64,000 nt of DNA, from assembly GCA_021815445.1 (NCBI GenBank), contig JAKAGM010000001.1, positions 659,710 to 723,709 on the forward strand, read 5' to 3'. This document shows positions 776 through 62,070 of the stretch, one piece after another (within the stretch, counting starts at the first letter, position 1; each line of letters opens with the position of its first letter). The notes below the pieces were generated by a model. That model saw only the letters and a program-made list of their open reading frames with translations. It made no database searches and had not been told where the DNA came from. The DNA is from a bacterium. Lineage in GTDB: Bacteria; Patescibacteriota; Patescibacteriia; UBA10025. The position numbers and the translations under genes are program-made.

Positions 776-2341
776 TTAGTAGCGCAATAATCTATTTATA
801 TCGGCTATCGCATCGAATTCTTCGTTGCTGAGGACGGGCGCTTTTTTTCCGGCGCGCGCGGCAATAACCTGTTGGACAGAAACACCCGTTTCGATGCTTT
901 CGCGTCCGATATCGAGATAGAGCTGAAAAAGCGGGGAGCGCCGCCATGCCTTGATGCCCGATGAACGCATTGCATATGATTCTTCCTCCAGGAGACTTAT
1001 TTTTTCAAGAATTTTTCTTTTGGCGTCTTCCGTCGTCGTGCCGAACCTGCGGAAATCGGTCACATCCAAGTCCGCGAGCTCCTCGACGGGGCCGAGTGTC
1101 TTATGAACCGCCGGCACTTCAACGATGTCGGAGATCCGCTGGCGAATCTGGGCATCGGGACGCCGCATCTGCGGAATCTCGGCTTCTGGGCGACTCACCT
1201 GAGGCGGGCTCGGCCTGGGAGAGGGAGCTGGCGGCGGCGTTGATTGCACCTTCAGCGGAATAGATGATTCGGGAGTCGAAACAGGTTGGAGTATAGGAAT
1301 AGTCTTGCCCGGCGAGACACGCGGAGACGGTTGCGCGGGAGGCGCTTGAACGGGCCGAGGCGATGGCATAGGCGCCGGCGAAACGTGCGGTGTCGGCTGG
1401 TAAACCTCAGTAACCGGACGGGACAGCACGACGCGGGGCTCTATCACCGGCGGCGGAGAGATCACCGGCCTGCGTTCCACCTCGGGAATACTCATGGAAG
1501 GATGCGGAGGCCTCAGCGGAATTTTTGGCGCATAGGGCCTCTGCGGAAGACGGTGTAATGCTTGTTGCATCGAGCCTTGCAGCTTCTGCAGCATTCCCTG
1601 AGACGCAAGCGTCGATGCCTCTTCCTCAATATCTACTATCAACCGGCGCGCTAAGTCGCTTTCGAAACCCATCCCGCCGATTTTCTGCGACCGCTGGAGG
1701 GCTTCCTCAGTTTCCATTGAATTGCGCATCTCCGAAAGCCGCGATTTTACTATGTTAAAAAAACGTTTTTCCATCACATCATCGGGAAAATCAACCGCAT
1801 TCCTGACTATGATATTTTGGATCACCGCGTCGAGGTCCGCTTCCGGAGTTTTTACAGCGAGATTGGCGAGCTTTTGGCGATGGAGGAGGATGTCCTGTTC
1901 GTCTTCCGGTTCGACGAAGTATGCCGATTTTGTACCTGACGAGACAGGAGTATGCGGTTCGAGAACAGACCGCTCTGCCAAAGCGCTTCGCGAGGGCGAG
2001 AGTTCAGCATGGTCTGAAGGTTTTAGGGTCTTTATTTCCCCTTGGAGTGTTTGGGGAATCAGACGTACGACCGGCGCTTTCGGCAGCGGTGTTGGAATCC
2101 CCTGATCGGTAGGCTGAGGAGCGACTTGCGGCATGGCCTGCGGGGCACCGGGGATCGGAGAGGCGACTGTTTCGGGAACAAAGGGCTTCTCCCCCACATC
2201 GAGGCTCGATGACGTTTGTCGCAGAGTGCTAAAATCCACCAGCTGTCCCTGCCGGACTATCTTGAGGCGGCCTTCTTTTGTCCTGATAATAAACCCCTCG
2301 GGAAGTCGGCTCGCGTCAAATTGTAGGTTGTCATCAGCCAT
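776..2341 (-). CDS. hypothetical protein with long proline-rich linker
   Basis: 521-aa uninterrupted ORF in the same operon. N-terminal globular part, ~250-aa Pro-rich low-complexity region, C-terminal alpha-helical domain. No recognisable catalytic motif. Confidence 0.6.
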   Translation of the reverse strand: MADDNLQFDASRLPEGFIIRTKEGRLKIVRQGQLVDFSTLRQTSSSLDVGEKPFVPETVASPIPGAPQAMPQVAPQPTDQGIPTPLPKAPVVRLIPQTLQGEIKTLKPSDHAELSPSRSALAERSVLEPHTPVSSGTKSAYFVEPEDEQDILLHRQKLANLAVKTPEADLDAVIQNIIVRNAVDFPDDVMEKRFFNIVKSRLSEMRNSMETEEALQRSQKIGGMGFESDLARRLIVDIEEEASTLASQGMLQKLQGSMQQALHRLPQRPYAPKIPLRPPHPSMSIPEVERRPVISPPPVIEPRVVLSRPVTEVYQPTPHVSPAPMPSPRPVQAPPAQPSPRVSPGKTIPILQPVSTPESSIPLKVQSTPPPAPSPRPSPPQVSRPEAEIPQMRRPDAQIRQRISDIVEVPAVHKTLGPVEELADLDVTDFRRFGTTTEDAKRKILEKISLLEEESYAMRSSGIKAWRRSPLFQLYLDIGRESIETGVSVQQVIAARAGKKAPVLSNEEFDAIADINRLLRY

Positions 2342-2581
2342 TGTGACGATGGGTGCGTATTATCCAGCCGTTTTCCAAAAAATATATTCGAGAGCTTCTC
2401 CAAAAAGTGGATTTATTATAGCACATATTCATGAAAAAATCAAAGACACCGCACTTTGGTGTCTGCCCACCCTGAACTTGATTCCCCGACCTCGCTCCGC
2501 GAAGCGGGGCGGGCAGGGTCCCGTGGTAATATAAACGATATGCTGAATCAAGTTCAGCATGGTATGAAGTAACGATCTTTA

Positions 2582-3910
2582 CTACACCTTATTCACCAGC
2601 TTGCCATTCTCGACGGCATGCGGCGCCCAGAGAAATGTTCCCTCGGCCTCATCAGCGTATGCCATCAGCTTGTACTCTCCGCCCATGATGTCGCCCAGTT
2701 CCATGCCGACTATCGCCGCCTCGTCCGCTGCCATATTCAGGCGGTCCTGCAAAAGGTATTGCAAGAATTCGCTGATGATTATCGGGTCCGTCGGGCGCGC
2801 ATCGATAAACTCCCGTACGCGGGCTTCGGGGTACTTCTTTTCCGCATATCCTGCCACCGTCTGTCGCCAGCTTTCGCTCTGTTTCAGGGCGTCCTGCAGA
2901 CGACCGATCCGGGCAAGTAGCAGAATGCATGCGACGAGATGAGCGCGATCTCTTTTGCGGAGCGCCTCGACAAGTTCTTTTTTGATCTTCACGGGGTCAT
3001 CCCCGAGACTTTGTCTCAGCTTCTGTTCCTCGGCAAACGGGCTAGCCATGCGTTCTTTAGCGAAAGTGAGTAGCTCAGCGAGTGTGCGGCGCGTGCGCAC
3101 GGAGTTTTTTGGTCGTGACGGCAAGCGCGCATCCTGTTTAGAAACTGGCGGCTTCGGAAAGACCTCGGAGCGTTGGGATAATATTCCTGATGCCTGCAGT
3201 CCCGTAGTAACAGGTGACACTACCATCTCTCGGGCAAATTCTTCAACGGGCGGATAACGGACGAAGTTATATACCTGGAGAATCTTGAGGACCTTTTCCC
3301 TGTCTTCTTTTGAGAATTGCCTGATGTTGGCGCTATGGCTGAGGTAATACATTTCTTCAAGGTTGCCGCGCTGTTCATCCGGCCTCGAAAGTCTGTTGTA
3401 ATCCGCTATTACACTGCTTACCGTCGAGGATACTGATCTACCCTGCTCAACTTGCATCGTATACTTTCCAATTTTTTCCATATTTCTTCCCATGGCTCTC
3501 AGGAGAATTCCCCTTTTTTCCCCGCGTAAAAAAGGATCCCACCATCCTTTGAAAAGAATCCTAAGTTTTTCGCGAACATCAATGTCGAGATTAAAAAGCG
3601 CCAGCAAATTTGAGCTGAATATTGTTTCAAGGTCTTGATTTTCGATAAAGGGGAGGGCAATTCCTTTGAGCCAGAGGATTAGTTTGCGGTATCGGCTGAA
3701 GAGGTCAGTATATCGTTGCTCCAGGGGGAGATTTTTATCAAGAAAATTTTGCAGAAAAGCGCTAAGCTTTACCGCGTCGGAATACAGGGATGCCCGTTCA
3801 ATATCGAGAACTTTTTGCCCGATACGCCCGTAAGATTCACTATCCAAGAGGTCATGGGGCGTGAGCTTGATGACCTGGTCGATATCCATGTCGCTGATGT
3901 TTTTGCCCAT
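2582..3910 (-). CDS. hypothetical protein (T4SS-like operon member)
   Basis: 442-aa ORF tightly packed between the VirB6-like gene (4-bp gap) and the Pro-rich gene. No recognisable motif. Confidence 0.55.
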   Translation of the reverse strand: MGKNISDMDIDQVIKLTPHDLLDSESYGRIGQKVLDIERASLYSDAVKLSAFLQNFLDKNLPLEQRYTDLFSRYRKLILWLKGIALPFIENQDLETIFSSNLLALFNLDIDVREKLRILFKGWWDPFLRGEKRGILLRAMGRNMEKIGKYTMQVEQGRSVSSTVSSVIADYNRLSRPDEQRGNLEEMYYLSHSANIRQFSKEDREKVLKILQVYNFVRYPPVEEFAREMVVSPVTTGLQASGILSQRSEVFPKPPVSKQDARLPSRPKNSVRTRRTLAELLTFAKERMASPFAEEQKLRQSLGDDPVKIKKELVEALRKRDRAHLVACILLLARIGRLQDALKQSESWRQTVAGYAEKKYPEARVREFIDARPTDPIIISEFLQYLLQDRLNMAADEAAIVGMELGDIMGGEYKLMAYADEAEGTFLWAPHAVENGKLVNKV

Positions 3911-44602: not shown

Positions 44603-44657
44603 TTATTCGAATGCGCTTGTATTCAAAGGATAAAGTGGACCGTACCGGATTCTAATT

Positions 44658-44730
44658 TGGACCTCAGGGGGCTCGAACCCCTCACCTCTTCCATGCCATG
44701 GAAGCGCTCTACCAAATGAGCTAGAGGCCC
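44658..44730 (-). tRNA. tRNA-Ala(GGC)
   Basis: Manual cloverleaf: acceptor GGGCCTC/GAGGTCC with the G3:U70 Ala identity pair. Anticodon stem CTTCC/GGAAG, loop ATGGCAT. T-arm AGGGG-TTCGAGC-CCCCT. CCA not encoded. Confidence 0.85.
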
Positions 44731-44736
44731 AGAACT

Positions 44737-45030
44737 TTATCTTATTTCTCTATCTATAAGTAAAATAATATCGGTAAGAGCTTTAACTGTATGATGAATA
44801 TTACCAGGAATTTCGATCTTCTTGTAGCCCGATATTATATCCCTTTCTTCGCCAACCTCAAGCTCTATCTTCCCTGAAATAAGGAATAATACTTCTTTTT
44901 CTTCATGTTGATGGTTCGCGCTGGTACTGCCCTGCTTTCTAGAAATTATTCGCACTTTACCACAATCATAAATTACCCCCCGTTCATCAGATTTATACGT
45001 ATCTATTTTCGTAATCTTGGCTTTTTTCAT
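44737..45030 (-). CDS. small cupin-domain protein
   Basis: About 98 aa from MKKAKITK. Beta-rich with a GxxxHxH-like region (IPGNIHHT). Sits between two tRNA-Ala genes. Confidence 0.5.
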   Translation of the reverse strand: MKKAKITKIDTYKSDERGVIYDCGKVRIISRKQGSTSANHQHEEKEVLFLISGKIELEVGEERDIISGYKKIEIPGNIHHTVKALTDIILLIDREIR

Positions 45031-45160
45031 AAATCTCTTGGTGGACCTAGGCGGAATCGTCAGGTCACCCGACCGGACGCCCCGTCGGACCTGTCCCGTC
45101 GAATGACGGGATGACGGGGCGAACTCTATCCTCAATAAACACTTAATTACATTGACCACA

Positions 45161-45231
45161 TGGACCTAGGGAGAATCGAACTCCCGCTTCCACAATGCGA
45201 ATGTGGTGTCATACCACTAGACCATAGGCCC
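45161..45231 (-). tRNA. tRNA-Ala(CGC)
   Basis: Acceptor GGGCCTA/TAGGTCC with G3:U70. Anticodon stem CCACA/TGTGG, loop TTCGCAT. T-arm GGGAG-TTCGATT-CTCCC. Confidence 0.8.
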
Positions 45232-45239
45232 TTGTTACT

Positions 45240-45311
45240 TGCCCCCACCAGGAATTGAACCTAGATCTATCCCTTAGGACGGGATTGTTCTATCCGTTGA
45301 ACTACGGGGGC
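45240..45311 (-). tRNA. tRNA-Arg(CCT)
   Basis: Acceptor GCCCCCG/TGGGGGC. Anticodon stem ATCCC/GGGAT, loop GTCCTAA. T-arm CTAGG-TTCAATT-CCTGG. Confidence 0.8.
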
Positions 45312-45472
45312 AAAGCGCACTAAGCTATATTTAGAAAATAAAATGTTCCACATGGAACATATTTTCAAATCATTATGATATTTTCAGCAAAAATTGTCAA
45401 TATTTCAATATTTTATATGGAGATATTTCTACAAATCATCTATATTTAGCCAAATCTATGTGTCGTAAAACA

Positions 45473-50839: not shown

Positions 50840-51436
50840 ATGAATGAGACATCATCAATGTATCTAATCCCCACGGTGATTGAAAAATCCCAGTTTGGCG
50901 AGCGGGCTTATGACATCTATTCCCGCCTTTTAAAGGATCGAATTATCTTCCTTGGAAGCCCGATAGACGACGGTGTCGCCAACACCGTCATCGCCCAGCT
51001 GCTTCTGCTTGATTCCCAGGACAAAAACAAGGACATTAAACTCTACATCAACTCTCCCGGCGGTTCTGTCACCGCGGGAATGGCAATCTACGACACGATG
51101 CAGTACGTGAAATCTGATGTCATCACCATTTGCATCGGCCTCGCCGCGTCGATGGCCGCGACATTGCTTGCTTCTGGGGCAAAGGGCAAGCGTTTTGTCC
51201 TCCCAAACTCCGAGGTGATGATCCATCAGGTCATGGGGGGCGCCGAGGGCCAGGCGACAGACATTAAGATCCGAGCTGAACATATTTTGAAGATACGCGA
51301 CCGCCTCAACCAGATCCTCGCCAAACATACAGGCCAATCCATTAAGAAAATTGAAGTAGACACGGACAGGGACTTTTTTATGTCGGCTGATGAAGCGAAA
51401 AAATACGGCATTGTAGACAAGATTATCCAACAATAA
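50840..51436 (+). CDS. clpP: ATP-dependent Clp protease proteolytic subunit
   Basis: [32 protein letters not shown] plus catalytic Ser/His regions ([15 protein letters not shown]). Start taken at MNETSS (50840), not the longer track ORF. Confidence 0.9.
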
Positions 51437-51598
51437 TACTGCGGAATAAAAAATACACTACCCCGCAGCTCTTGCTGGTGGTTCCTGTTTGGCTGTCTTA
51501 AACACAACTGGTTTTAAATAATACTGGAATAGCTTTTTCCCCATGCGCGGCGCACTGCCTGAGGCCGGCGACGGAACAAGGATATAAACCAAACGGCC

Positions 51599-51674
51599 GA
51601 GTTTGCGCCGCGACGTCCTTTCTTTTCTCTCCACTTTTCTTTGGACGAGCAAAGAAAAGTGGAGCCTCCGGAGG
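51599..51674 (+). repeat. intergenic repeat element, copy 1 (perfect 15-bp-stem hairpin CTCCACTTTTCTTTG/gacgag/CAAAGAAAAGTGGAG followed by CCTCCGGAGG)
   Basis: Stem 51629-51643 and 51650-51664 are exact reverse complements. Whole ~75-bp block recurs at 61060-61192. Confidence 0.6.
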
Positions 51675-51869
51675 AAAACATTGGTTGGGAAAGAGTGGAT
51701 TGGGCACATAACGTAATCACCTCCTTTTTTCTAAAAATCGGGCGCTTATTTAGCGTACAACCTCCACCCCAATCGAACACGCCCGTCATAAAAGCATGGT
51801 TTTTACAGGGATTGAAGAACCATTAAATCAAAAACTTTTTGTTATTCATCGAAGTTCAAGGCCCTTCCC

Positions 51870-51898
51870 TTGCGTTCGGCGGACACATGTGTTACACT
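51870..51898 (+). promoter_or_regulatory. candidate promoter for rny (TTGCGT-17-TACACT with TG extension)
   Basis: Spacing read from the sequence. About 55 bp upstream of the rny ATG. Confidence 0.3.
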
Positions 51899-56177: not shown

Positions 56178-56193
56178 TACTCTTCCTGCCCCA

Positions 56194-56265
56194 TGGGTCG
56201 TGGAGGACTCGAACCTCCAACCTTAGGCTTAAGAGGCCTCTGCTCTACCATTGAGCTAACGACCC
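56194..56265 (-). tRNA. tRNA-Lys(CTT)
   Basis: Acceptor GGGTCGT/ACGACCC. D-arm GCTC-AATGGTA-GAGC. Anticodon stem (G)AGGC/GCCT(A), loop CTCTTAA. T-arm GGAGG-TTCGAGT-CCTCC. Flanks CTGCCCCA/TGGGGCAG could extend the acceptor helix by 8 bp. Confidence 0.85.
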
Positions 56266-56304
56266 ATGGGGCAGGAAGAAATATCACCGACTCAGAGACT
56301 GTAA

Positions 56305-56562
56305 TTAATTAGGATTGTTGCCTTGAATGATTTTCTTAATACTATTATGTTTCTTGAGTGATTTCAAGTACCGCTCTCGCAAGTAAGCTTGCTGTATTGT
56401 ATCAAATTCTTCGATATGAGCTAGCCTCCATGGACGACGCGATTTTGTTGAGAGAGAGTAACCTGCCTGGTGTTCTCGAAAACGCCGCTTCGGGTTGTTT
56501 GAAACACCAATATAATAGGAACCATCATTCTGGCTCTCCAAAACGTACAAATAATGTTTCAT
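56305..56562 (-). CDS. small GIY-YIG nuclease-domain protein
   Basis: MKHYLYVLESQNDGSYYIGVSNNPKRRFREHQAG matches the GIY-x10-YIG...R...E pattern. About 86 aa from MKHY. The longer track ORF extends through an upstream hairpin region. Confidence 0.7.
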   Translation of the reverse strand: MKHYLYVLESQNDGSYYIGVSNNPKRRFREHQAGYSLSTKSRRPWRLAHIEEFDTIQQAYLRERYLKSLKKHNSIKKIIQGNNPN

Positions 56563-56630
56563 ATCAACCTTGGGTCCCGGCCCCGCTTCCGGCGGGGCCG
56601 AGGATCCTCGATGCCGGAACGGCATCGGGA

Positions 56631-56701
56631 CTTAAGAGGCCCCTGCTCTACCATTGAGCTAACGACCCATGGCACAGGAAGAAATATCACCGACCGGCAC
56701 A
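56631..56701 (-). pseudogene. diverged duplicate of the tRNA-Lys(CTT) 5' half (positions 1-38) plus its upstream flank
   Basis: About 63-71-nt block near-identical to 56228-56292 (3 mismatches). Contains acceptor 5' strand, D-arm, and an anticodon stem-loop with compensatory stem (GGGGC/GTCCC). No T-arm or 3' acceptor strand follows. Instead hairpins GATGCCG-ttc-CGGCATC and GGCCCCGC-cggaa-GCGGGGCC follow. Confidence 0.5.
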
Positions 56702-56770
56702 TAGCAACGAAATGGCTCGTGTAGAATGATTGTTGTATAAAAAAACTTCTTCGTCAAGGAATGACTACTT

Positions 56771-56791
56771 GCGCCCGGAGGGAGTCGAGTC
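56771..56791 (-). repeat. 21-nt duplicate of the 3' end of tRNA-Arg(TCG) (att-site-like scar)
   Basis: TCGACTCCCTCCGGGCGCAAG on the minus strand is identical to the 3' T-arm/acceptor end of the tRNA at 56923-56995, 130 bp upstream. Confidence 0.5.
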
Positions 56792-56922
56792 CTGGGCAGC
56801 GCCAGATGCTTCGCTTGCTCGCATCTGTCGACGCTCACTTCGTTTCGCTTCTGCCCTTCGACTCCTCGGCTATTTGGAAAGAGAAACCTTTAAGAAACAG
56901 TAAAGTAGCTATGAGCAATTCT

Positions 56923-56995
56923 TGCGCCCGGAGGGAGTCGAACCCCCAACCCCATGGTCCGAAGCCATGTACTCTATCCATTGAGCTACGGGCGC
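56923..56995 (-). tRNA. tRNA-Arg(TCG)
   Basis: Acceptor GCGCCCG/CGGGCGC. Anticodon stem CATGG/CCATG, loop CTTCGGA. T-arm GGGGG-TTCGACT-CCCTC. Confidence 0.8.
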
Positions 56996-57177
56996 ATAAC
57001 TGAAACTGCCGCCATAGTGTAACAATCATCGTACCAAATTTCAAGCTTTAATCTGCTAGAATAATCTTCCAGTCAAACTTTGCGGAACATCACCCCTGCC
57101 TTATCCACATGCTTCGTTATCGCTAAGCTTTGTGGTATACTTTCACCTGTTATTATTTTTTTCACATTGAGAACTCT

Positions 57178-59647: not shown

Positions 59648-60946
59648 ATGAAAAACAAATACTATAGCCTTATCAGCTTAGGTGTCCTGACTGCAGTAGC
59701 GTCGGGCGTGTTTGTGTTCGCCACACCGCATATTGCTCTTGCCGTTTCGGCTCCGACAATCCGCACACCAAAGAACGGCGCAGTGGTTGCTCCCGATACC
59801 AAGATAGTTGTTACGGGATTGGCACAGAATAATTCGACAATTTATTTTATTTTAGATAAAAAAGTTATCGGCGGGACAAAAGTGAAGAACGGCAAGAACA
59901 ATCTTGGCTCGTTTTCCTTCACGATAAAGCAAACGCTTTCCCGGGGCGTGAAACACTCCCTCGAATCTCAGGCGCTCAACAAAGGCGCAAAAAGTCCTTT
60001 TTCTTCACCAATAACGTTTACCTTGCCAAAAACATGGCCGCGGCGGCTGGATGGCGTTATCGTTGATGCTTCAAAGGCGAATGTCCTCCCCGTTGCCGTT
60101 ATGATAGAGAATCTTGCGCAAGTCAGGCCCCAGTCGGGACTTGCCTCGGCTTCAATAGTATACGAGGCTCTCGCCGAAGGAGGGATTCCGAGATTTATGG
60201 CAATCTTTGCGAGAGACGATATGCTGAAAGTCGGGCCTGTACGGTCCACGCGCCCGTATTACGTCGACATTGCAAAAGAATACGGCGGCCCGCTGTTGCA
60301 TGCGGGAGGAAGCCGGGATGCCTTCCAAGAAATCGGCCGCCTGCAAGTACGCAGCATAGACGCGTTGGTAAATAAAACGGCAAAATACTTTTTCCGCACG
60401 GGAACATCCCCGTCGACACATAATCTTTTTACCAATAAAACAAGAATTGCGGCAATCAAAAATGACTTTAAGCTGGAGTCGGTTATAGCGGGTTTTGACC
60501 CCTGGAAATTTAAGGATGACCCGGTGCTGTCCAAGCGGCCCAATGAAAAAAGACAGCTTACCATCGACTTTAAATCGGGGAGAGAGTACATTGTCATGTA
60601 CAAGTATGAGAGGGCGTCTAACAGTTACTTGCGGTTCAATGGAGGCAGGCCCCATCTCGACGCGAATTATCCCAAGGCGACGCAAATCAAAGTGAAAAAC
60701 GTCGTTGTCCAACTTATCGAAAAGGAAAAGGTTCTCGATGCAAAAAAGCATCTTGCCCTCCAGATCACGGGGTCGGGGAAGGGCTGGCTCCTGCAGGACG
60801 GCAAACTCCAACAGATTATCTGGAGGAAAGCAAAGGCAAACAGCCGGACAAAGTTCTATTTCACAAACGGCAAAGAGATTGAATTTGACCGCGGTAACAC
60901 GTGGGTCGAGATAGTGCCAAAAGACCGGCCGGTAACATATAAATAA
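59648..60946 (+). CDS. DUF3048-domain secreted protein (YerB-like)
   Basis: Signal peptide, then VMIENLAQVRPQSGLASASIVYEALAEGGIPRFMAIF, characteristic of DUF3048. Confidence 0.7.
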   Translation: MKNKYYSLISLGVLTAVASGVFVFATPHIALAVSAPTIRTPKNGAVVAPDTKIVVTGLAQNNSTIYFILDKKVIGGTKVKNGKNNLGSFSFTIKQTLSRGVKHSLESQALNKGAKSPFSSPITFTLPKTWPRRLDGVIVDASKANVLPVAVMIENLAQVRPQSGLASASIVYEALAEGGIPRFMAIFARDDMLKVGPVRSTRPYYVDIAKEYGGPLLHAGGSRDAFQEIGRLQVRSIDALVNKTAKYFFRTGTSPSTHNLFTNKTRIAAIKNDFKLESVIAGFDPWKFKDDPVLSKRPNEKRQLTIDFKSGREYIVMYKYERASNSYLRFNGGRPHLDANYPKATQIKVKNVVVQLIEKEKVLDAKKHLALQITGSGKGWLLQDGKLQQIIWRKAKANSRTKFYFTNGKEIEFDRGNTWVEIVPKDRPVTYK

Positions 60947-60972
60947 CTCCCCGACAAGAGTCATGCACGAAA

Positions 60973-61005
60973 CTGAGGATTGATCCTCAGTCGTGGTTTT
61001 CGGAT
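60973..61005 (+). terminator. terminator-like hairpin after the DUF3048 gene
   Basis: CTGAGGAT-tg-ATCCTCAG followed by TCGTGGTTTTCGG. Confidence 0.35.
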
Positions 61006-61059
61006 ATTCTTTGCTCGCGGTGCACTGTCCGAACCCCACACCATCAGATGGTGTGGGGT

Positions 61060-61192
61060 GAGTTTGCACCGCGACGTCTTTTTCCCGCCACCTTTATCTC
61101 AAACCATGGGGGCGGGATCCCGCCTATACGGCGGTGACTTTTCTCTCCACTTTTCTTTGGACGAGCAAAGAAAAGTGGAGCCCCTCCGGAGG
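61060..61192 (+). repeat. intergenic repeat element, copy 2 (same 15-bp-stem hairpin, with a ~52-bp internal insertion relative to copy 1)
   Basis: GAGTTTGCACCGCGACGTC...CTTTTCTCTCCACTTTTCTTTGGACGAGCAAAGAAAAGTGGAGCCCCTCCGGAGG. Hairpin at 61145-61180. Confidence 0.6.
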
Positions 61193-61320
61193 AGATCAGA
61201 AAACTTCCCGACAAGACTTTTTTCTCCTATCAATAGTGCATCTAACTTGTAAAAAATCTTTACACAGTTTATTTACCCGCCTCGTTATTAATTAAATTGA
61301 CAAAATGACTATTTTATGCT

Positions 61321-62070
61321 ATGATGTATACGATGATCAACTGGGAAAACGGCAAAAAAAACGTCAAAGAAAAAGAAGCGAAACGGACTGAGTTTATCTC
61401 CATCGTATCCCACCAACTACGGACGCCTCTTGCTATTGTCCGAGGATACCTCGAAGCGCTTCTCACCGACGACCTCGGCAAATTGACGGACGGACAGCGG
61501 GAATATGTATCTGAAGCGCTGAAAAAGAATAACACGATGATCCATCTTATCAATGACTACCTAAATGCGGCCCAGCTCGACCAGGGAAAGATTGAGATTC
61601 ACGCTGAACCGACGCAATTTGAGGAGCTCGTGGATGAAACAGTGCAGTCGTTAGTCACCTTCGCACAAGCGTCGAACTGCGAGCTTACCTTCGAGAAGCC
61701 GAAAGAGAAGCTCCCCCCGCTGAACATAGACCCGATTAAAATTCAGCAGGTGATCGAGAATGTCATTTCAAACGCCGTCAAATATACAGGCAGGGGCGGA
61801 AAAGTGAAAACGTCACTCATAAAGAAAGAAAATGGCGTTGAGTTTGTCTGCCAAGATACCGGCGTCGGTATTCCGCAACAACAACAGGATGAGATCTTCA
61901 CCCGTTTTTTTCGCGGCCACAATGTCATAGGCAAAGATACCCAGGGGTCAGGGCTCGGACTCTTTATTGCAAAAACGATTATCGACGCGTCTAGCGGGAA
62001 AATTTGGTTTGAATCGGAAGAAGGCAAGGGAACCACTATGCATGTCTTTCTTCCTCTTACAAAAACATAA
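61321..62070 (+). CDS. cytoplasmic histidine kinase (HisKA + HATPase_c only)
   Basis: H-box FISIVSHQLRTPLAIV, N-box ENVISNAVKYT, G-boxes DTGVGIP and GSGLGL. No TM or sensor domain. Confidence 0.8.
   Translation: MMYTMINWENGKKNVKEKEAKRTEFISIVSHQLRTPLAIVRGYLEALLTDDLGKLTDGQREYVSEALKKNNTMIHLINDYLNAAQLDQGKIEIHAEPTQFEELVDETVQSLVTFAQASNCELTFEKPKEKLPPLNIDPIKIQQVIENVISNAVKYTGRGGKVKTSLIKKENGVEFVCQDTGVGIPQQQQDEIFTRFFRGHNVIGKDTQGSGLGLFIAKTIIDASSGKIWFESEEGKGTTMHVFLPLTKT

Follow-up and report, generated by a model that had tools for sequence, protein, structure and literature searches.

The DNA analysed here (hereafter the window) is a stretch of 64,000 nucleotides (nt) from contig JAKAGM010000001.1 of a Patescibacteriota assembly (GCA_021815445.1), and it carries two copies of an intergenic element on the same strand. 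Copy 1 (51546-51674, +) has clpP, rny and ymdB as its neighbours and sits in the clpP-rny spacer; copy 2 (61015-61194, +) sits between a DUF3048 gene and a histidine kinase gene. Comparative sequence analysis shows the two copies to be members of a large, unannotated and widespread family of structured nucleic-acid elements whose pseudoknot is supported by covariation and whose major-groove triplex is predicted. The unit is ~130-190 nt long here and reaches ~250 nt in other lineages. All coordinates are those of the whole window, and L-numbers (L003, L100 etc.) are labels of related loci or contigs.

A preliminary description of this DNA had placed copy 1 at 51599-51674, around a perfect 15-bp hairpin in a ~500-bp non-coding region between clpP and rny, and had reported a near-identical copy in the same orientation. 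The sequence given for copy 1 was exact, including the perfect stem (CTCCACTTTTCTTTG / CAAAGAAAAGTGGAG), the loop GACGAG and the CCTCCGGAGG that follows. The second copy is present at 61060-61194, where it shares a 47-nt core with copy 1 and is interrupted by 54 extra nt (61084-61137) that form two hairpins. The spacer is where it was said to be and measures 516 bp. The limits given for the element covered only part of it: in an alignment of the two loci, similarity starts ~55 nt further 5' than 51599 and 61060, at 51546 and 61015, and this 5' half, the pseudoknot and the triple helix had been missed.

The 36-mer hairpin occurs exactly twice in the window, against 0.00 occurrences expected from shuffles, and the 19-mer GAGTTTGCRCCGCGACGTC also occurs exactly twice, against 0.06 expected. 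When every position of the window was scored with a covariance model of the 3' module, the two copies reached 67.1 and 60.9 bits on the plus strand, the reverse complements of both reached 20 bits, and no third copy was found. The 5' half contains a helix, P1, with the consensus CGCGGYGCA / TGCRCCGCG in the two copies (CGCGGCGCA/UGCGCCGCG in copy 1 and CGCGGUGCA/UGCACCGCG in copy 2), including a compensatory change from C:G to T:A (U:A in RNA). P1 encloses a conserved internal loop (CUGYCYGA ... GAGUU) and a hairpin, P2, that is paired in both copies with unrelated sequences. The features of copy 1 are the following.

51546..51554 (+): 5' strand of P1 (CGCGGCGCA), pairing with 51604-51612; P1 covaries across the family
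51555..51562 (+): internal-loop strand J5' (CUGCCUGA); the motif (C/A)UGUYUGA is found in 22 of 23 parsed members
51563..51598 (+): variable hairpin P2 (GGCCG ... CGGCC, 26-nt loop); position and pairing are conserved, and the sequence is unlike that of P2 in copy 2
51599..51603 (+): internal-loop strand J3' (GAGUU); RAGUY recurs across subfamilies
51604..51612 (+): 3' strand of P1 (UGCGCCGCG), pairing with 51546-51554
51614..51617 (+): pseudoknot strand S1a (CGUC), pairing with loop GACG at 51644-51647, with covariation
51619..51627 (+): putative triplex third strand L1 (UUUCUUUUC), parallel to AAAGAAAAG at 51651-51659; its run length and C position track the purine arm
51629..51664 (+): hairpin S2 (15-bp stem, loop GACGAG at 51644-51649); 13 pairs tested, 11 changed on both sides
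51665..51674 (+): small 3' hairpin P6 (CCUCCGGAGG), weakly supported, also in copy 2, L003 and L004 (CCCCCAGAGGG)

Copy 2 has the same parts, with the third strand divided by the insertion.

61015..61074 (+): 5' domain, with P1 at 61015-61024 / 61065-61074
61025-61032 (+): J5' (CUGUCCGA) of the conserved internal loop
61033-61059 (+): P2, a perfect 12-bp hairpin within the 5' domain
61060-61064 (+): J3' (GAGUU) of the conserved internal loop
61075..61083 (+): pseudoknot strand CGUC (61075-61078), then the third strand as far as the insertion (U-UUU-U), in the register of copy 1 up to triple 3
61084..61137 (+): optional two-hairpin insertion, splitting the third strand between triples 3 and 4
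61138..61143 (+): remainder of the third strand (CUUUUC), matched to GAAAAG in the purine arm, with the register kept across the insertion
61145..61180 (+): hairpin S2, identical to that of copy 1, with its loop at 61160-61165
61181..61194 (+): P6 (CCCCUCCGGAGGAG)

The preliminary description had held that the hairpin is not a simple terminator, and this view stands. No U-tract follows the hairpin in either copy. An intrinsic (Rho-independent) terminator was rejected, as the stem is A-U-rich and is followed by CCUCCGGAGG, and a terminator scan of the window made no call there.

Covariation of the pseudoknot and the predicted triple helix

A covariation analysis, which had been suggested for the hairpin, supported its pairing and that of the pseudoknot. 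Over 72 aligned sequences, the 13 apical stem pairs and the four pseudoknot pairs were paired in 96.2% of cases, and 14 of the 17 pairs were altered on both sides. For the pseudoknot pairs alone, 96.5% of cells were paired and three of the four pairs had changed on both sides. When the 3' partners were slid by 1-3 columns as a control, only 44-53% were paired, and none of 500 shuffles reached the observed values. Covariation thus shows that CGUC upstream of the hairpin and GACG of its loop form a pair, that is, loop-to-upstream pairing of the kind that makes a predicted H-type pseudoknot. Seven Watson-Crick-compatible versions of the pseudoknot, with both sides altered together, were found among the relatives.

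CGUC:GACG: copy 1 and copy 2 of the window
UGUC:GACA: L015, L038, L089, L131 and L132
CGCC:GGCG: L017, L083 and L097
UGCC:GGCA: L100, L118, L130, Ilyobacter and Pseudoalteromonas
CCGC:GCGG: L113
GCUG:CAGC: Burkholderia sp. RPE67
UCGC:GCGA: Variovorax

Between the pseudoknot strand and the stem lies a U/C tract (UUUCUUUUC) that runs parallel, 5' to 3', to the purine arm of the hairpin (AAAGAAAAG), a register within reach of loop 1 in an H-type pseudoknot. The length of the U-run after the third-strand C equalled that of the A-run after the purine-arm G in 74 of 91 sequences (Spearman 0.85; 0 of 10000 permutations), and the third strand tracked the purine arm in 47 of 55 sequence clusters. Clusters with a run length other than 3 are those that discriminate between the parallel register, a direct repeat of the 5' arm and an alternative Watson-Crick partner. 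There were 33 such clusters, 29 of which followed the parallel register and one the direct-repeat register. Where the G-C pair is shifted in the stem, the third-strand C is shifted too, as in L100 (UUUUUCU over AAAAAGA), L118 (UUCUCUUU over AAGAGAAA) and L109 (UUCUUU over AAGAAA). The insertions in copy 2, L003, L041 and L087 all lie between triples 3 and 4, with the register intact on either side; those in L041 and L087 are homologous to that of copy 2 (GCGGGAUCCCGC motif).

With a parallel third strand that places U opposite A-U and C opposite G-C, comparative sequence analysis shows a predicted pyrimidine-motif, major-groove (Hoogsteen) triplex of ~9 stacked U.A-U / C+.G-C triples in copy 1. 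Across the family there are 6-10 canonical triples, and the C+.G-C triple hardly varies. The alternative that the U/C tract forms Watson-Crick pairs with the purine arm was rejected, because A-runs of 2, 4 and 5 would set C opposite A. Intramolecular triplex DNA (H-DNA) formed from a mirror repeat was also rejected, as it leaves the covarying pseudoknot and basal stem unexplained. The plus strand is taken as the strand of the RNA because the pyrimidine third strand exists only there, because the covariance scores are asymmetric (67/61 versus 20 bits) and because G.U pairs (27) outnumber A.C mismatches (17).

This arrangement brings to mind a riboswitch-type sensor of SAM-II or preQ1-II architecture, which would respond to pH through the C+.G-C triple, to Mg or to polyamines. 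The combination of an H-type pseudoknot with a major-groove triplex is the topology of SAM-II, SAM-V and preQ1-II, and the nearly invariant C+.G-C triple depends on protonation. However, the predicted triplex is canonical without interruption and leaves no obvious pocket, none of the Rfam riboswitch models matches, and the copies have random orientation, no consistent downstream gene and no expression platform. We regard a sensor as very improbable.

In the 5' module, P1 and P2 covary across 23 parsed members (GGGUCGUCAUG/UAUGGCGACCC, AAGGUUCAGUA/UGCUGAACCUU and UGUGGAUUG/CAAUCCACA) around the conserved internal loop (C/A)UGUYUGA / GAGUU, which in Variovorax reads CUGUUUGA-GCGAAGC-GAGUU. Many lineages have an extra 5' hairpin domain and a middle domain, which bring the RNA to ~200-250 nt; copy 1 and L004 represent the minimal form, with P1 directly next to the pseudoknot strand. 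P6 lies after the main hairpin in members from the lineage of the window, and analogous hairpins are found in GC-rich members. Tandem G-A positions flank P2, but a kink-turn was rejected, by eye only, as the rest of the loop is off consensus.

The highly conserved unpaired nucleotides beside these tandem G-A positions (UGA [P2] GAG), together with the pseudoknot, would also suit a self-cleaving ribozyme or another catalytic RNA of a new class. The family is also multi-copy, patchy, gene-independent and spread across phyla, which resembles the behaviour of the hammerhead and twister ribozymes. Against this, no known ribozyme model matches even at E values up to 10, and the internal loop has neither a third stem nor a hammerhead core, nor can a cleavage site be inferred. 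The likeness of J5'/J3' to the hammerhead core CUGAnGA...GAAA was rejected as superficial, there being no third stem. A match to hammerhead RAGATH-1 at 60934-60997 (+) was likewise rejected (19 bits versus a gathering score of 56, E = 1.2); it lies over the stop region of the DUF3048 gene and the terminator-like hairpin there, outside the element, and its hammerhead core is broken. A ribozyme is therefore considered improbable.

Two further patterns were seen in subsets of the family. In six AT-rich loci, L022 (8241), L027 (2012), L032, L047, L049 and L056, the main hairpin is followed directly on its 3' side by a smaller one built on the same plan, (U)UCUUG G-NNNA-G CAAGA(A), whose loop is GGAAAG, GAGAAG, GGCAAG or GACAAG. 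In a cluster of ten loci (L007, L026, L067, L069, L076, L088, L099, L108, L110 and L111), conservation extends ~60 nt upstream and ~190 nt downstream of the hairpin. These loci have a Bacteroidota-like TTTG ... TAnnTTT promoter pattern upstream, and their downstream conservation ends in an AT-rich hairpin plus UUUUU despite differing neighbour genes. The cluster also has a short conserved AAGKUUAUGAAUAA segment without a kept reading frame.

Distribution of the family and database matches

A 25-mer from the hairpin occurs in two copies (L003 and L004) in a single-cell genome labelled Patescibacteria group bacterium, where the sequence of P1 differs and still pairs; P6 is present in both. The 20-mer at the apex of the hairpin, TTCTTTGGACGAGCAAAGAA, was found on at least 120 metagenome contigs from many environments. 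In these loci the sequence of the basal stem varies yet pairs, and the upstream block GGGCGUCYUUUCUU is conserved. The covariance model of the 3' module gave 132 matches in 100 related loci with 28-69% G+C. The preliminary description had allowed that the element might prove unique to these two loci or part of a known insertion sequence or miniature inverted-repeat transposable element (MITE). The first does not apply, as at least 120 metagenome contigs and multiple phyla carry it. Nor does it appear to be part of a known insertion sequence or MITE; no transposase recurs beside the copies.

A BLAST search against PLSDB identified relatives on large secondary replicons of Caballeronia/Burkholderia (11-19 matching places per record), Variovorax, Ilyobacter polytropus (Fusobacteriota) and Pseudoalteromonas, and weak matches in Paraburkholderia. 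The cultured hosts of the family span three phyla. The family was found in Patescibacteria, Pseudomonadota and Fusobacteriota and is probably also present in Bacteroidota; there was no match in E. coli at the sensitivity used. The exact 20-mer had no match in IMG/VR, where variant loops were found on six contigs, and a phage origin was rejected on these counts.

Several contigs have multiple copies, among them L100, where ~12 copies alternate in orientation over 14.6 kb. At least eight further contigs (including L083, L110, L113, L118, L130, L131 and L134) carry two oppositely oriented copies separated by a few hundred nt. The spacings of such pairs fit 5' ends that face each other, with a full readout for L100 only. 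The copies of L100 (2000-3950, 8070-8510 and 14540-14620) are of two paralog types, with loops GGGCAAGC and GGACGAGC/AGACGAGU, and form a ~590-bp tandem unit within a capsule/exopolysaccharide gene cluster, with a GCTGAGT-type microsatellite between. In L125 (Burkholderia sp. RPE67 p1), positions 2250-3210 hold a 478-bp tandem duplication, 96% identical, that includes a copy of the element and the terminal (3') part of an MFS transporter gene. At 2584-2847, inside one repeat unit and just 3' of its hairpin, lies a coding sequence annotated as 'hypothetical protein'.

A search of Rfam had also been proposed earlier. No Rfam 15 family covers the element at gathering thresholds or at a permissive E-value in the window, both copies and 37 related loci, and the search gave one sub-threshold match, to RF02421, in Burkholderia only. 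The whole window at gathering thresholds yielded five tRNAs and nothing else; these genes lie on the minus strand at 44657-45312 and 56193-56996 (Ala-GGC, Ala-CGC, Arg-CCU, Lys-CUU and Arg-UCG). Both copies searched at E values up to 10 gave noise below 20 bits only, 20 diverse family loci at gathering thresholds gave one tRNA, and L110 and 14 GC-rich loci gave no real match. Membership of RF02421 was rejected, as the match reached 30.5 bits against a gathering score of 44 and was confined to Burkholderia sp. RPE67; no match to this family was found in the window or in 14 other GC-rich members. In RPE67 the alignment starts within the hairpin's 3' arm, covers P6 and continues into a ~80-nt lineage-specific tail. 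A search of the literature on the sequence, on non-coding RNAs of Patescibacteria and on bacterial triplex RNAs found no description of this RNA.

Genomic context and turnover

The element is always intergenic. Upstream open reading frames (ORFs) stop >150 nt before the hairpin and are mutually unrelated, and the neighbour proteins of the related loci fall into 162 clusters with no recurrent family. The four orientation classes of 60 non-redundant loci held 19, 18, 14 and 9 loci. In the largest class both neighbours lie on the opposite strand, and therefore one third of the copies cannot belong to a neighbour's mRNA. Same-strand downstream genes had no common functional theme. Terminator-like sites within 180 nt downstream were found in 13 of 84 members, versus 8 and 6 in two control regions, which is no enrichment.

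In the window, promoter-like sites were identified downstream of both copies.

51870..51898 (+): rny promoter-like site TTGCGT-17-TACACT, from an alignment with L135, L137 and L138; outside the element, at the right limit of a lineage-specific insertion
61297-61325 (+): kinase promoter-like site TTGACA-17-TATGAT, downstream of copy 2 and conserved in relatives

Both promoters are conserved in relatives, and since they lie downstream of the elements, neither copy is the leader of rny or of the kinase gene. The assignment of copy 1 to the rny leader region in the preliminary description is not supported, as the rny promoter is conserved in relatives that do not have the element. On the other side, a terminator-like hairpin separates each upstream gene from its element.

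These observations bear on whether the element acts in cis within an mRNA, as a 3'-untranslated stabiliser or unconventional terminator (of clpP and the DUF3048 gene) or as a leader (of rny and the histidine kinase gene). Both window copies do sit between same-strand upstream and downstream genes, a triple helix could block 3' exonucleases, and three L100 copies lie 90-200 nt upstream of same-strand genes. However, orientation is random over the 60 loci, the downstream genes are functionally unrelated, and in the window the copies are bounded by the terminator-like hairpins on one side and the conserved promoters on the other. A role of this kind is unlikely. In L024, a same-strand gene 210 nt downstream was read by eye from the sequence as dihydrolipoamide dehydrogenase, and the Burkholderia RNA Bp1_Cand684 lies between pdhB and lpdA (PMC3521395); this may be a coincidence.

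An antisense ORF of 83 aa (51458-51709, -) that overlaps copy 1 was called as a gene in the source metagenome-assembled genome and has an apparently very strong Shine-Dalgarno sequence, which is the complement of AAUCACCUCCUUUUUU on the plus strand. It was rejected as a protein gene, as hand translation placed the shared core in different frames in the two copies and there was no Pfam match. The gene call is probably spurious, an artefact of the element.

TnpB/Cas12-type guide RNAs combine a pseudoknot and a triplex, and the element could be an orphan scaffold of this type (omega-RNA). Such guide RNAs are multi-copy and cross-phylum, and the scaffold here stops abruptly at P6 and gives way to unrelated sequence. 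However, none of ~120 loci has a TnpB, IscB or Cas gene overlapping or next to the element. The >150-nt distance to the upstream ORFs also stands against it, as do the window neighbours themselves (clpP, rny, the DUF3048 gene and the histidine kinase gene). We consider this explanation extremely improbable.

We favour the reading that the element is a stand-alone structured RNA in which the triplex pseudoknot is a stabilising or recognition module, and we put its chances at about even. This reading is preferred because there is no recurrent neighbour, because both genes are on the opposite strand in 19 of 60 loci and because downstream genes have no theme. It also draws on the overlapping small-RNA candidate of B. 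pseudomallei (Bp1_Cand684), which was detected by reverse transcription PCR (PMC3521395). In the proposed scheme, the RNA would be transcribed on its own rather than within a neighbour's mRNA, and the plus-strand transcript would fold into two modules. The 5' module would consist of P1, closing an asymmetric internal loop (CUGYYUGA / GAGUU), and the variable hairpin P2, and the conserved internal loop may be the working surface. The 3' module would be the H-type pseudoknot, with CGUC paired to the loop GACG and UUUCUUUUC lying in the major groove beside AAAGAAAAG. Such a triplex pseudoknot may form a rigid module that is exonuclease-resistant, protein-recognised or both, and would stabilise the RNA without a canonical terminator. 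Of the candidates listed in the preliminary description, a small RNA or stability element is the best supported.

Several observations weigh against this reading. Some concern the RNA itself: covariation does not separate an RNA from a single-stranded DNA, and upstream promoter-like sites are weak, with TTGATC-17-GATATT before copy 2 falling below the scan threshold and none convincing before copy 1. The Burkholderia Rfam model of Bp1_Cand684 runs ~80 nt past P6, and the triplex need not be the 3' terminus. Others concern the turnover of the element among close relatives. The window RNase Y is closest to proteins of Patescibacteria and of Candidatus Kerfeldbacteria, and the closest relatives (RNase Y 84-86% identical) keep the gene order infB-rbfA-nrnA-clpP-rny-ymdB-hup with a clpP-rny spacer of 127-166 nt that does not contain the element; copy 1 lies within a ~390-bp lineage-specific insertion. 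At the other locus, the DUF3048 and kinase genes of a relative from the same sample as one of the RNase Y relatives, and probably of the same organism, are separated by a 296-aa gene, and the element is absent. The covariance model found no copy in ~100 kb of the relatives' DNA. A 15-nt direct repeat (14/15 identical, spacing 257) flanks copy 2 and the hairpin after the DUF3048 gene as a unit, in the manner of a target-site duplication; our own rough estimate of the chance rate of such a repeat in a region of this kind is ~0.005.

60945..60959 (+): left direct repeat AACTCCCCGACAAGA, 15 nt, partner of 61202-61216
61202..61216 (+): right direct repeat AACTTCCCGACAAGA, partner of 60945-60959

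Absence in relatives and the direct repeat favour insertion or rapid gene turnover. No empty site could be aligned base for base in the relatives. Some replicons, moreover, have the element in 11-19 places or in arrays. The patchy presence, direct repeat and multi-copy arrays agree equally well with a mobile element and with a cellular RNA gene.

The main rival is a selfish, non-autonomous mobile repeat (MITE-, REP- or retrozyme-like, REP standing for repetitive extragenic palindromic sequence) whose folded RNA or single-stranded DNA serves its own spread. The ~12 copies within L100, the opposite-orientation pairs on at least eight contigs, the random orientation relative to genes, the few copies on IMG/VR contigs and the absence at both syntenic loci of the closest relatives would all suit such a repeat. 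On the other hand, no transposase, integrase or reverse transcriptase recurs among the 162 neighbour protein clusters. No terminal inverted repeats were seen in the two-copy alignment, with no dedicated inverted-repeat scan of unit ends run. The RNA of copy 1 has no bracketing repeat; the only one nearby is a 10-nt repeat, AATAATACTG (51432-51441 / 51517-51526), around the hairpin after clpP and not around the RNA. Copies within a genome are strongly diverged, with different pseudoknot versions and unrelated P2 sequences, and 96% of pairs are kept by compensatory changes, which points to selection on each copy and not to a recent burst followed by decay. The sequence core is also conserved across phyla, unlike that of REPs or MITEs. 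The patchy presence, the multiple copies and the direct repeat at copy 2 keep the miniature mobile repeat named in the preliminary description as a candidate. We consider a mobile repeat possible and rather unlikely, and retain a stand-alone RNA as the preferred reading.

Comparison with known systems

The one Rfam family that touches the element is RF02421 (Bp1_Cand684_SIPHT), which aligns in RPE67 from the 3' arm of the hairpin through P6 onward (30.5 bits). In B. pseudomallei, Bp1_Cand684 was positive by reverse transcription PCR, has no conserved neighbours and is possibly trans-acting (Khoo et al. 2012, PMC3521395). The RF02421 model starts mid-hairpin and includes neither the 5' domain nor the pseudoknot and triplex, and its remaining 80 nt are lineage-specific. 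RF02421 is part of one lineage's version of the element, glimpsed and mis-delimited, without its fold. Together with the spurious ORFs placed over the element, this family, which covers the tail only, marks an annotation gap.

REPs, bacterial interspersed mosaic elements (BIMEs) and REPINs are likewise intergenic, multi-copy and found in both orientations and in alternating arrays, and REPs stabilise mRNA. REPs are, however, imperfect ~35-nt palindromes that are species-specific and tied to RAYT transposases, whereas the present unit has 130-250 nt, several covarying helices, a pseudoknot and a 20-mer core shared across phyla. Type III toxin-antitoxin RNAs (ToxI/CptI) are bacterial RNAs with triplex cores in their pseudoknots (PMC4627078); they differ in being 34-45 nt direct tandem repeats beside a toxin gene, features that the present element does not have.

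The SAM-II, SAM-V and preQ1-II riboswitches are also bacterial H-type pseudoknots with a major-groove triplex formed by loop 1. Their triplexes are short and built around the ligand, with two canonical and a few non-canonical triples, and they lie in the 5' untranslated regions of coherent genes (PMC7583470). In the present element, the predicted triplex is much longer and uninterrupted, and there is no gene association or expression platform. Two reviews of triple helices discuss bacterial cases only in riboswitches and group II introns (PMC7583470, 2020; PMC13541005, August 2026).

Together with SAM-II and preQ1-II, telomerase RNA is the nearest known structure. This RNA too has an H-type pseudoknot in which a U-rich loop 1 lies in the major groove of stem 2, parallel to an A-rich strand, with U.A-U triples beside the junction, and it has the same strand order: S1a, U-rich L1, S2a ending in U's, S1b, L3 and S2b starting with A's. 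Telomerase RNA is eukaryotic, however, and belongs to a reverse transcriptase ribonucleoprotein with a template; it has fewer triples and a long A-rich minor-groove L3. The present RNA is bacterial, with 6-10 canonical triples, an almost invariant C+.G-C triple and a 2-nt L3, and has no adjacent reverse transcriptase or recognisable template. No reverse transcriptase was found among the 10 main ORFs scanned at 47-62.5 kb of the window, nor as a recurrent neighbour in the family. Membership of the telomerase-type RNAs was rejected on these ORFs and loci, and that of the riboswitches, REPs/BIMEs and omega-RNAs on the grounds given above.

The ENE (element for nuclear expression) triplexes of MALAT1 and PAN resemble the predicted structure in another respect. 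They have a long U.A-U stack broken by C+.G-C, and they block 3' exonucleases, which is the role proposed here. An ENE is eukaryotic or viral, and its U-rich internal loop clamps a 3' A-rich tail, whereas the present structure is a pseudoknot whose purine strand is the 3' arm of a hairpin.

On this comparison, the family may represent a new, phylogenetically wide class of structured RNA in bacteria. Its triplex module would serve, independently of terminators, to stabilise RNA or to be recognised by proteins, as a bacterial parallel to the ENE and telomerase triplexes of eukaryotes and viruses; we judge the arguments for and against this to be evenly balanced. The same balance applies jointly to the suggestion that the family's triplex, in a telomerase-like pseudoknot, is the longest canonical RNA triple helix known from bacteria. 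If true, this would be a new structural class, a stand-alone bacterial RNA with 6-10 uninterrupted canonical triples that is maintained with covariation in several phyla and is present in minimal Patescibacteria genomes. The presence of the family in culturable hosts (Variovorax, Caballeronia/Burkholderia, Pseudoalteromonas and Ilyobacter) makes it directly testable. A structural class of this kind would point to a use of triplexes in bacteria for RNA stability or recognition, as in eukaryotes and viruses.

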